From: an uncultured Brachyspira sp.
Lineage (GTDB): Bacteria; Cyanobacteriota; Vampirovibrionia; Gastranaerophilales; Gastranaerophilaceae
Direction: 5' to 3'
DNA: 64,000 nt
Assembly: GCA_902383995.1 (NCBI GenBank)
Contig: CABLZX010000007.1
Span: forward strand, 39,702 to 103,701
Numbering within the stretch: position 1 is the first letter of the stretch; each line of letters opens with the position of its first letter. Made by a program: the position numbers. Below, in pieces: positions 54,001 to 57,000 of the stretch.

Positions 54001-57000
54001 ATCGACAAGGAAAATAATTTTGTCCGCCTCTTCGCAGGCAATACGTGCCTGATCAAAGATTGAAACCATAATTTCATCTTCATCACCCGGAATAATACCG
54101 CCGGTATCAATTACTGTAAAGACTTTGTTCATCCATTCGACATCAAAATATATTCTGTCGCGGGTTACACCGGGCAAATCGTCTACAATAGAGTTTCTTG
54201 ACCCCACAAGACGGTTTACGAATGTAGATTTACCTACATTCGGGCGGCCTACTATTGCTACTATCGGTTTTCTTTTCATACAGAAAGTATAACATGAATA
54301 TTTTTTATTGTATCCATTCTTCGTGACTTATTTCTCTGTGGAGATAATCCATGTTTCCTGTTTTAATTAGCCAGGTTGCGCAGCTTCCGCCGCTGTACCA
54401 GGCTTGTCGTTTTGTGCGCGAGCAGGATTCTTCTGTCAGCCACCATAAATTATAGCCCGTAATTACAGGGTATTTATTTTTGGTATTAAATAACATAATA
54501 AAAAAATCTTTTCCAAATTGATTCGGGCCTTTTGCACCGTTAATATCAAGATAAAATATGGCTTTATTTTCGGAATTATTATTGCTGTCGCGTCCACTAA
54601 TAACACCATTCAAGCCTACAGTTGCCCCGTTTGCAAGAGCAAAAATATACTCTACATCACGCCATCCGTTCCAGTTTGTTGATTGTTTTCCATCAAGCTC
54701 AAGATATATGTTTGGTAAACCATGGCTGCTATTCTTGTCATTCTGACCGAAATTTTTTGATAATTTTAAGTAAGGTAAAAGTTTTTCGGCAACTGTTTTT
54801 GTACTGCTTTTTGTATCTTCTGTAGACAGATTCCATTCATCAAGCAAACCGTGTTCCTGATATGCTCGGACATATGCTTGAGATAAGATGGAATATGTAC
54901 TTTTGAACTGATTAATCCATATTTTTTCTTGTTGCTTCTGAATAAGAGTTGGAAGTGTTAATGAAGCAACAACCCCTATAATGCCTAGTGTAATTAAAAC
55001 TTCCGCTAAAGTAAATGCGGATTTACGGGACAATCCCAAAGCGTGAAAAAGCCCGCCGGCGTTATCTAAGCCCCCCCCCCCTTTGAGATTTTGAAGCTAT
55101 AATTGTATTTTGCATAAATACCTCCTAATATATTTAGTCAAAAGCAGACCTCCGCTGCTTACGCCCCGCCTTCGCGCGACGCGCGCAGCTTCGCTGTCTA
55201 ATACGCCGCTCTAAAATTCCGCTCACGTTCCTTATCGCAGAATTTTTTCGGACATTTATATGATAACATAATTTTCAAAAAAAAGGAACCGAATATTTAC
55301 ATTCGGTTCCTTTTTTGGATTTTCATATCTATACTAGTCAAAAGTATATCCGATAATTGCAGCTTCTCTTGCACGTTTAATTGCTTTTGCAATCATTCTC
55401 TGGTGTTCTGCGCAGTTGCCTGTAATTCTGCGAGGAATAATTTTTCCTGCTTCTGTCAGGTATCTTTTCAATTTTGCTGCATCTTTGTAATCAATTTCAG
55501 TTACTTTGTCTGCACAAAGACTGCAATTTTTACGTTTTTTCTTATCCTGAGCATCTTGTCTTGCCATGTTTTAATTCGCCTTTCTAGCCTTATTTTTACT
55601 ATTACTTATTTTTTCATTTTTCCTGCTAATATTTCAACTAATGAATTTTTAGCTTTGTTCTCTGTTTTGTTTGAACCTGTATATACATCCGGTGTAAAAG
55701 CTGCTGCTTTTTTACCCATATATCTTACAGTTGATTTCAATTGAGAATTTTTCATCTTTTGTGTATGCGCTGCATATTTTTGCATTTGCGCAGGGATAAA
55801 TTTTACACTGCTCATATTCAGTTTTTCCTTTTTTAAAATGGTATTTCGTCTTCGCCGATCAGTTCGTTTGAGAAATCATCTGATTCAAACTTCACAATTT
55901 CTTCTGTTCCGAATTTTGAACTTCCTGATGATGCCGCCGGGGAAGAGGAATCTTCACCGAGTTTTTCAATTGTATTGGCATCAATTTCGTAAATTCTTTT
56001 TTCGGTTCCGTCATCCATTTTGACAGCTGCTGTCTGAAGTCTGCCTTCTACCAGCACGCGGTCGCCCTTTGTTAGAGATGAAACAATTTCATCAAGAGCA
56101 TTTCTTTTAGAAATAACTCTTAACAGCATTTCTTCTCTTTCTCCGATATTAAGAACAAATGCAGAAACCGCAACGTTATTTTGTGAAAAACGTTTTTCAG
56201 GCTGTCTGTATACTGTTCCTGTAACTACTGATTTTGCTAATGACATTTTATTTCCTTTTCTTTACTGTTTACACAGAAGCTTTTGCTGAAACTTCCATAA
56301 ACATTGTTCTGATGATGTTGTCGCTTAATCTTAATTGTCTTTTGAATTCAGCAACTTTGTCAGCAGGCAATGCAAGAACCATTGAAACGAAGAAGCCGTC
56401 TCTAAAGTTCTGGATGTCATAAGCTAATTTTTTTCTGCCCATTTTGTCAGTAGATTCAACTTTACCGCCGAATTCAACGATTGTATCGTTGATTTTAGCA
56501 ATTAATTTATCTACTTCTTCTGCATCTAAATTTGGTTTAAATACAGTTAATAGTTCGTAATTTTTCATTTTTTGTCTCCTTTTGTATTTTGGTGTAACCC
56601 AATGATAACATGAAAAGACAAATTATTACAACATGTATTCCGCGGTGAAACTGTAATTTGCCGGACCTGTGAGGAAAATGTCTTTTTTCGGATTAAGCTT
56701 ATTCCCTTGCCATTCCACGAATACAGCCCCTCCAAGAAGGTTTACCTTAACTTTTTCTTCTGTTAAGTTATTTAAAACACATGCAACTACTGATGCACAG
56801 GCCCCTGTTCCGCAAGCAAGAGTTATGCCGCAGCCGCGTTCGTAAACCCGCATTTCAATTTCTGTTTTAGAGATTACTTTTACAAATTCGGTATTTGTTT
56901 TTTCAGGAAAAAATTCATGTTTTTCGATAACCGGCCCGTATTTCAAAGCCATATCCATAGGGTTATCGTTGACGGTTATTACACAGTGAGGGTTACCCAT

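Follow-up and report, generated by a model that had tools for sequence, protein, structure and literature searches.

The question raised by the locus described here is whether a run of 11 guanines (G11) in the leader of a pilin-like gene switches production of the encoded protein. The gene is located on the minus strand of a 64,000-nucleotide (nt) stretch of DNA from an uncultured bacterium of the Gastranaerophilaceae, deposited as Brachyspira sp. (contig CABLZX010000007.1). This whole stretch is referred to as the window, and the features discussed are listed in Table 1. The minus strand reads ttAGGAGGtatttATGcaaaatacaattatagcttcaaaatctcaaa-G11-cttagaTAAcgcc, with C11 on the plus strand. An initial annotation, made from the sequence alone, had described an AGGAGG motif, a 5-nt spacer, ATG 55115, the G11 tract and a stop codon shortly after it, and each of these statements was correct. 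In the G11 state, the product is a peptide of 17 amino acids (aa; MQNTIIASKSQRGGGLR) that ends at this stop codon. When one G is removed (G10 state), the frame continues as MQNTIIASKSQRGGGLDNAGGLFHALGLSRKSA/FTLAEVLITLGIIGVVASLTLPTLI... (the slash marks the predicted cleavage site) for 269 aa to a stop at 54305, and the leader reads ...RGGGLDNAGGLFHALGLSRKSA (RKSA) immediately before FTLAEV. The window has a GC content of 35.6% and contains runs of at least 10 G or C at three places; in each case, the interrupted gene has the G on its coding strand. The G10 pattern is found at 3 sites (6 overlapping matches), while 0.01 are expected based on 100 dinucleotide-preserving shuffles. The best explanation of the pilin-like locus is that the G11 tract is a slipped-strand contingency locus that acts on translation and is mostly OFF in assemblies, and we consider it probable that tract length in the DNA gates the translation of a prepilin with a long leader.

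Table 1. Features of the pilin-like locus and related elements in the window (Shine-Dalgarno, SD; open reading frame, ORF; repetitive extragenic palindrome, REP)
Feature	Position	Strand	Remarks
SD site AGGAGG	55121..55126	-	5 nt ahead of ATG
Start codon (ATG 55115-55113) and pre-tract leader MQNTIIASKSQ, then first base of Arg codon	55082..55115	-	34 nt
G11 homopolymeric tract, proposed switch	55071..55081	-	between start codon and cleavage site
TAA stop of the G11 (OFF) frame	55062..55064	-	reached via CTT AGA TAA
Post-tract leader LDNAGGLFHALGLSRKSA (G10 frame)	55016..55070	-	ends at predicted prepilin cleavage site A/F
Example of a leader peptide			LDNAGGLFHALGLSR
TTG GGA TTG, two candidate alternative starts (55039, 55033)	55031..55039	-	rejected as start codons
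Mature pilin-like protein FTLAEVLITLGIIGVV..., 236 aa and stop	54305..55015	-	N_methyl/TIGR02532 motifs
Pilin-like paralog without tract	51863..52555	-	canonical short leader MKAG/FTLAEV; N_methyl/TIGR02532 searches
G12 tract in 5' part of RgpF-like (rhamnan synthesis) glycosyltransferase gene	41939..41950	-	out of frame
G10 tract splitting giant protein into 160-aa and 2056-aa ORFs	15277..15286	+	ORFs 14812-15294 and 15510-21680
Dispersed repeat R2 (REP-like, GC-rich, ~110 nt)	55140..55250	-	directly upstream of the SD site
Terminator-like hairpin after rpsR, 16 bp	55279..55316	-	separates ribosomal-protein genes from R2 and pilin-like gene

The protein obtained with one base fewer is of the prepilin type, as had been anticipated. 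Its N-terminus resembles a class III signal peptide, with Phe at position +1, Glu at position +5 and a hydrophobic helix, and it passes the cut-offs of both PF07963 (Pfam N_methyl; 21.8 bits, cut-off 21.2) and TIGR02532 (20.4 bits, cut-off 16.3). The AlphaFold2 model of a 244-aa form of the protein (predicted local distance difference test score of 91.9) comprises a helix formed by residues 11–63, followed by a beta sheet of ~7 strands, and the layout is predicted to be pilin-like. A sequence search against solved structures matched pilins only in their N-terminal helix (best E = 0.009), and the head domain was unmatched. Two invariant Cys residues and a conserved C-terminal motif, GNMDYLHR, are present in the head domain. 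The leader that starts at ATG 55115 comprises 33 aa in the G10 frame. Its length had been called unusual, which was confirmed, but it is a trait of the whole family and is not peculiar to this gene. The nearby pilin-like paralog without a tract, also reported in the initial annotation, is real.

A comparison of orthologs and paralogs, proposed earlier as a check, identified both G10 and G11 alleles of this gene and a cassette that is shared by its paralogs (see below). The tract is G11 and out of frame in eight assemblies (the window, L002–L006, L018 and L096), and it is G10 and in frame in two (L001 and L007, 99.6% and 94% identical to the window, respectively). The in-frame 269-aa form is present in public assemblies (proteins P0001 and P0133). 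The differing N-termini that are called for this one gene (218, 241, 244, 269 and 296 aa) result from the tracts. A pattern scan of Joint Genome Institute (JGI) metagenomes returned two loci, both with G11, one of which (L097) is a pilin-like gene distinct from the present one that carries the same type of leader cassette. The post-tract leader interval is identical between the window and L001. The pre-tract leader is the most variable part between strains, and it is here that amino-acid differences between L001 and the window cluster. The homology between these two sequences ends 2 nt upstream of the ATG (window 55115–55117, L001 5999–6001), where an acetyltransferase gene is found upstream in L001 and rpsR with the repeat R2 in the window. 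From this breakpoint and from the cassette in L097, recombination looks frequent at the edge of the cassette, which would make it a hot spot.

The mature part of the protein (236 residues) contains no indels or stops across the compared lineages, with synonymous divergence (dS) of up to 0.6. The ratio of nonsynonymous to synonymous substitution rates (dN/dS) of this part is 0.12, 0.16 and 0.12 relative to L018, L019 and L020, respectively (dS of 0.19–0.60). The gene is therefore not a pseudogene. Since the consensus is out of frame and the protein is under purifying selection, expression must come via reversion or recoding. The locus combines a non-random long run within an ORF, length differences between strains, full-length versus truncated products and selection, all of which are features of a contingency locus. 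The initial proposal that tract length gates prepilin production is supported by the strain alleles, by purifying selection and by a reading frame that is kept open throughout the family.

Strains likewise vary in the length of the two remaining window tracts. Their strain alleles were found through look-ups of the neighboring xerC-like and thiS genes; an exact-protein look-up of the 261-aa RgpF ORF gave no match. Across strains and samples, the tract of the RgpF-like gene (ORF 41071–41856, which adjoins the xerC-like gene at 42054–42974) is present as G11 (in frame, 312 aa), G12 or G13. The tract of the giant protein is G11 in other strains, in which there is one gene of 2283–2316 aa, and G10 where the gene is split, as in the window. 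The 2056-aa ORF has a weak match to RamC_N, and the locus looks like a second phase-variable surface protein. Because the window tracts vary in length between strains, they are ordinary poly-G contingency tracts in this species, and the pilin tract is among them.

A protein search with the repaired 269-aa protein returned thousands of relatives. In a survey of the family, the C-terminal domain was scanned in one genome per species, which gave 64 loci, with Brachyspira sp. CAG:484 as the best match (96% identity). Every record that names a taxon belongs to Gastranaerophilales or Melainabacteria, and the others are metagenome-assembled genomes (MAGs) labeled 'uncultured bacterium' or early co-abundance gene group (CAG) bins. 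Among such bins, Brachyspira sp. CAG:484, Clostridium sp. CAG:768 and CAG:967 are now placed in Gastranaerophilales. All 64 loci are thus assigned to this order, and the window is attributed to an uncultured melainabacterium of the gut from the Brachyspira sp. CAG:484 group. The cassette, which consists of an SD site, an ATG, 7–13 codons and a run of G9–G12 on the coding strand, was found in 28 of the 64 loci. Within the 47 loci with a recognizable FTLAEV start, a coding-strand G9–G12 run lies at most 450 nt upstream in 24 and at 465–560 nt in 4 others; on the opposite strand, no runs were found upstream of these loci except C16 at a contig end. G runs are ~27-fold enriched upstream of pilin-like genes (24 in 19 kb versus 8 in 171 kb). 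An SD-ATG pair is located 21–41 nt upstream of the tract in ~19–22 of the 28 loci, compared with 2.4% of random positions. The leaders of paralogs reach 150–196 codons. A module of ATG, G11 and leader that is 87% identical over 150 nt is found in L097 (2842–2988), where another pilin-like gene follows it. Many paralogs share the cassette, and it looks portable. In-frame forms that start from the cassette ATG (MLKSENTDYTYILQGGG...) also occur in other paralogs, with in-frame to out-of-frame ratios of 5:8 contigs in one cluster and 4:14 in another.

Several further features of the family were noted. The leaders of L022, L024, L028, L036, L037, L039–L041 and L049 (upstream of 1405) contain GC-rich REP-like inserts that are in frame for 92–196 codons, and the translations of these inserts include ...RHCEELATKQS..., ...SFAFAQDD... 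and ...ICHPELGSGSQ.... Members of one cluster formed at 90% have leader lengths of 133, 146, 155 and 183 aa. Many paralogs within L036–L080 have AGCTCC 8–10 nt downstream of the G run, which is usually flanked by C on both sides, and the peptide reading of the post-tract motif is GGG-x(6-10)-GF. About 20 MAG contigs end a few hundred bases upstream of, or inside, pilin-like genes (e.g. L023, L030–L035, L042, L043, L052, L053, L056, L060 and L062). Assembly may break here on account of the G tracts and of the N-terminal coding sequence that the genes have in common, and the family is likely under-counted in MAGs.

Several observations weigh against gating of a prepilin by the length of the DNA tract. 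Of the ~22 cassettes in species representatives for which an SD-ATG was identifiable, only 2 (L038 and L022) are in frame; the remaining ~20 are always exactly 1 nt off, with G10 loci in need of +1 and G11/G12 loci of −1. Relative to the approximately one third that is expected under free length drift, this is a deficit of in-frame cassettes with a binomial p of ~0.01 (our own calculation). For the gene of the window, the in-frame 269-aa form is represented by ~3 contigs and out-of-frame forms by ~173, as counted from the 15 members listed of a 36-member protein cluster. The length variation was observed between strains, whereas the proposed switch would act reversibly and at a high rate within a population. 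Residue −1 is Ala (RKSA/F), where the canonical residue is Gly, and the 33-aa leader departs from the short basic leader of ~5–30 aa; Ala at −1 is frequent in this pilin-like family. Prepilin peptidase would have to cleave leaders of 33 to ~190 residues. When the AlphaFold2 model was compared with the PDB by Foldseek, no match with E < 1 was obtained for the head domain (best E = 1). Finally, a sigma-70 scan of 54200–55700 detected no convincing minus-strand promoter between the rpsR terminator and the ATG.

The skew against in-frame cassettes can be read in two ways. It fits strong selection for the OFF state, as in a repertoire in which one of many variants is expressed, or expression mainly by RNA-level slippage. 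According to the latter explanation, recoding is programmed: the genome is one base out of frame, and a low, set level of prepilin is produced by slippage of RNA polymerase on C11, which gives G10 or G12 transcripts, or by ribosomal frameshifting, so that changes in the DNA are secondary. The present run exceeds the length of an RNA:DNA hybrid, and slippage is thereby possible without mismatch. Recoding would also be in agreement with a consensus that is one base off in nearly all species-level cassettes, with G11 in 8 of 10 orthologous assemblies and 10 of 10 loci of Candidatus Scatousia, and with purifying selection that acts on the gene all the same. However, because both +1 and −1 shifts are required at different loci, no single directional frameshift mechanism fits. 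In-frame DNA alleles occur for this gene and are common in other paralogs, no stimulatory hairpin or conserved slippery context was found beyond the run itself, and the other two window tracts behave as ordinary length-variable tracts. RNA-level recoding is thus unlikely, and we favor selection for OFF based on the opposite directions of the shifts, the in-frame DNA alleles and the normal behavior of the other tracts.

Gating at the level of translation further requires that the tract lies inside the coding sequence. The SD context of ATG 55115 (AGGAGGtatttATG) is almost equal to that of the tract-less paralog (AAGGAGGtattaATG; initiation region tAAGGAGGtattaATG at 52555), and in L001, in which the same gene follows the acetyltransferase gene, an SD site precedes the ATG as well. 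Neither TTG 55039 nor TTG 55033 is preceded by such a site. In a sister lineage with 94% identical DNA (L005, L006, L007 and L018), TTG GGA TTG is replaced by TCG GGA TTA, although the mature protein is conserved, and the interval between the tract and FTLAEV contains no ATG, GTG or TTG. Gene callers default there to an ATG within the transmembrane helix, which yields the 218-aa forms. Since both TTG codons are lost, a complete prepilin in the sister lineage is possible solely from the upstream ATG. A start at TTG 55039, which the initial annotation had named as the result that would move the tract to the 5' untranslated region (UTR), is contradicted both by the missing SD site and by this loss.

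The reading frame of the interval between the tract and the cleavage site points in the same direction. For L018, the pilin frame is free of stops across the orthologous interval, and the other two frames contain 2 and 1. Among the 24 loci with a tract at most 450 nt upstream, the pilin frame is open in 21, where shuffles predict 4.4, and the other two frames are open in none; the pilin frame contains 11 stops, compared with 110 and 78 in the other frames. It is also open in 4 of 4 further loci (25 of 28 in total). The open stretches reach 92–196 codons and cross the GC-rich REP-like inserts, and the 3 closed loci each carry their own SD-ATG beside FTLAEV. The frame is constrained but the sequence is not, a pattern that is explained only if translation runs from the tract into the pilin. 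Judged by these comparisons, the tract is located in the coding sequence of the leader. The idea that it lies in a promoter spacer was rejected, as no suitably spaced −35/−10 pair was apparent by eye, and it is made unnecessary by the coding-frame evidence.

A tract in the 5' UTR, with the pilin starting at one of the two TTG codons and the short ORF from ATG 55115 being regulatory or meaningless, is very improbable: a UTR would not require a frame that is open back to the tract. The 244-aa form that starts at TTG is nevertheless the one reported by the ORF tool and by public gene callers, and an arrangement of this kind is present in the Candidatus Scatousia orthologs (L008–L016 and L019; ~1335–1516), which are 88% identical in protein sequence over the C-terminal domain. 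In these loci, the cassette is located directly after lepA and forms a separate 19-codon ORF. It is followed by a terminator-like element (hairpin ccgcactgtgac-tatt-gtcacggtg with a T run), an extended −10 box that resembles a promoter (TGGTATAAT), GGAGG and an ATG, from which the pilin begins canonically as MKKFA/FTLAEV. L046, L050, L058 and L059 are arranged in the same way. In Candidatus Scatousia, the frame remains open between the tract and the pilin, and rare assemblies read through in frame (P0132 and P0134). When the two arrangements are compared, it follows that lineages move between gated and autonomous expression.

A decaying pseudogene, namely a redundant paralog inactivated by a frameshift that has become fixed, is less probable still; the OFF allele dominates the assemblies and the genome contains many paralogs, but in-frame alleles exist and the mature part is conserved, as described above. 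The weakest explanation is a homopolymer miscount in sequencing or assembly of a true G10 genome with an intact gene, because, even though homopolymers are error-prone and all three window tracts are out of frame, G11 is present in 7 other independent assemblies from different pipelines, errors would be needed in both directions at different loci, and a run of at least 10 G in a 36% GC genome is not due to chance, whatever the exact count.

Under the preferred explanation, in which the DNA tract gates translation, the switch would operate as follows. Translation would start at ATG 55115 behind the strong SD site. With G10 (or G13), the ribosome would pass through the 33-residue leader to A/FTLAEV, and prepilin peptidase would cut at A/F and release the mature pilin-like protein, which is predicted to reside at the surface or in a pilus. 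With G11, as in the window, or G12, the ribosome would stop after at most 17 codons, and no complete pilin would be made. Slipped-strand mispairing in replication would alter the tract length, so that lineages flip between OFF and ON.

Extended to the family, this mechanism would give Gastranaerophilales a system of stochastic expression of dozens of prepilin-like surface proteins. Each gene would carry a portable cassette composed of an SD site, an ATG, ~10 codons and G10–G12, followed by a leader of arbitrary length (25 to ~590 nt) that is selected for frame only and tolerates REP-like insertions. With most copies one base off, one or a few variants would be produced per cell, similar to antigenic variation, and prepilin peptidase would remove the Gly run together with the junk leader. 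Whether this joint reading holds in full is, in our estimate, an even call.

Poly-G switches are established in other bacteria. In Neisseria gonorrhoeae and Neisseria meningitidis, pilC1 and pilC2 contain a run of ~9–20 G in frame near the 5' end, and slipped-strand mispairing switches them ON or OFF (Jonsson et al. 1991, cited in PMC5953494); poly-G tracts are also found in Neisseria pgl and lgt genes (PMC5953494). The present locus is similar to pilC in that a G run is located in the 5' reading frame of a pilus-related gene. However, PilC is a large tip/adhesin protein with a Sec signal peptide, it is not a prepilin and it has no homology to the present protein, and there are one or two pilC genes, compared with a large paralogous family that shares one cassette. 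Work by Jonsson and colleagues in 1991 reportedly placed the pilC tract in the region that codes for the signal peptide. The present tract, unlike that of pilC, is found in a class III (prepilin) leader, which can be very long. It lies upstream of the cleavage site, and the Gly run would therefore be absent from the mature protein.

Campylobacter jejuni and Helicobacter pylori have AT-rich genomes with poly-G contingency genes for surface structures. The present genome resembles them in its few non-random G9–G13 runs in the 5' parts of genes for a glycosyltransferase, a large surface protein and an appendage, with length differences between strains. It differs in its phylum, which is that of the non-photosynthetic Cyanobacteria (Melainabacteria), and in targets that include a multigene prepilin-like family. 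Type IV pilins and type II secretion pseudopilins share with the present protein the pattern (K/R)-x-(G/A)/F-T-L-A-E followed by ~20 hydrophobic residues. Their known leaders are ~5–30 aa long, whereas the present leader has 33 aa and those of paralogs up to ~190 aa; Ala at −1, a head domain without a solved relative and the lack of assembly genes nearby are further differences from type IV pilins. Genes that rely on transcriptional slippage, such as those for transposases of insertion sequence (IS) elements and Thermus dnaX, use A/T runs and one fixed direction. They resemble the present genes in having a homopolymer of at least 9 nt between two frames that are to be joined, with the genomic frame usually 'wrong', but the present runs consist of G, shifts in either direction are required and some DNA alleles are in frame. 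In function, the present tract is the same device as known poly-G switches. Its new aspects are the host clade, the placement in a class III leader, the family-wide cassette and the very long leaders that are constrained in frame only. In the literature library that was searched, no report of phase variation or homopolymeric tracts was found for Melainabacteria or Gastranaerophilales.

The gut microbiota of humans and animals commonly includes Gastranaerophilales, which are uncultured and whose interaction with the host is poorly understood. If the family-wide reading is true, it would be the first such contingency-locus system reported from the phylum of the Cyanobacteria, and the class III signal peptide would have a new use as a disposable switch module. 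A hypermutable repertoire that comprises pilin-like proteins, a surface glycosyltransferase and a giant protein would point to strong fluctuating selection on the surface, for example by antibodies or phages. The frame-only constraint over up to ~190 codons serves as a natural test, and it suggests that a prepilin leader may be both long and arbitrary, provided that it is translated. The tracts could also serve as a marker of ON/OFF states in vivo that is readable in metagenomic reads.

The pilin-like gene stands by itself, with rpsF-ssb-rpsR on one side and der on the other. The ORFs scanned in its surroundings (the neighbors rpsF-ssb-rpsR, der and other housekeeping genes) included no pilus assembly genes or prepilin peptidase. 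R2 is immediately upstream of the gene, as had been described, and the window contains two further copies of it (739–821, minus strand, and 51265–51340, plus strand). Neither L001 nor the Candidatus Scatousia orthologs carry R2 ahead of this gene, and the repeat is therefore not part of the switch. For the same reason, R2 was rejected as a riboswitch or leader of the pilin-like gene, the z-score of its fold being only −2.25. Rfam searches with the gathering threshold for the whole window and with an E-value threshold for 54950–55350 returned nothing at the tract region or R2; the sole weak matches were generic hairpin matches to the rpsR terminator. In L005-type strains, the 22-nt loop of the first R2 hairpin, bounded by the short inverted repeats AAAATTC and GAATTTT, has the opposite orientation to that in the window (a small hairpin-loop inversion), and the R2 copy at 51.3 kb contains a G7 run. 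Between ssb and rpsR, there is a 69-aa ORF (55606–55815, minus strand) without a Pfam match, and those retrieved strains of this species in which the rpsF-ssb-rpsR context is retained also have a gene called there. A series of three small acidic ORFs (144, 121 and 126 aa), likewise without Pfam matches, occupies 50343–51828 on the plus strand; the 121- and 126-aa ORFs have similar C-terminal halves, and a copy of R2 is located between the second and third ORF.

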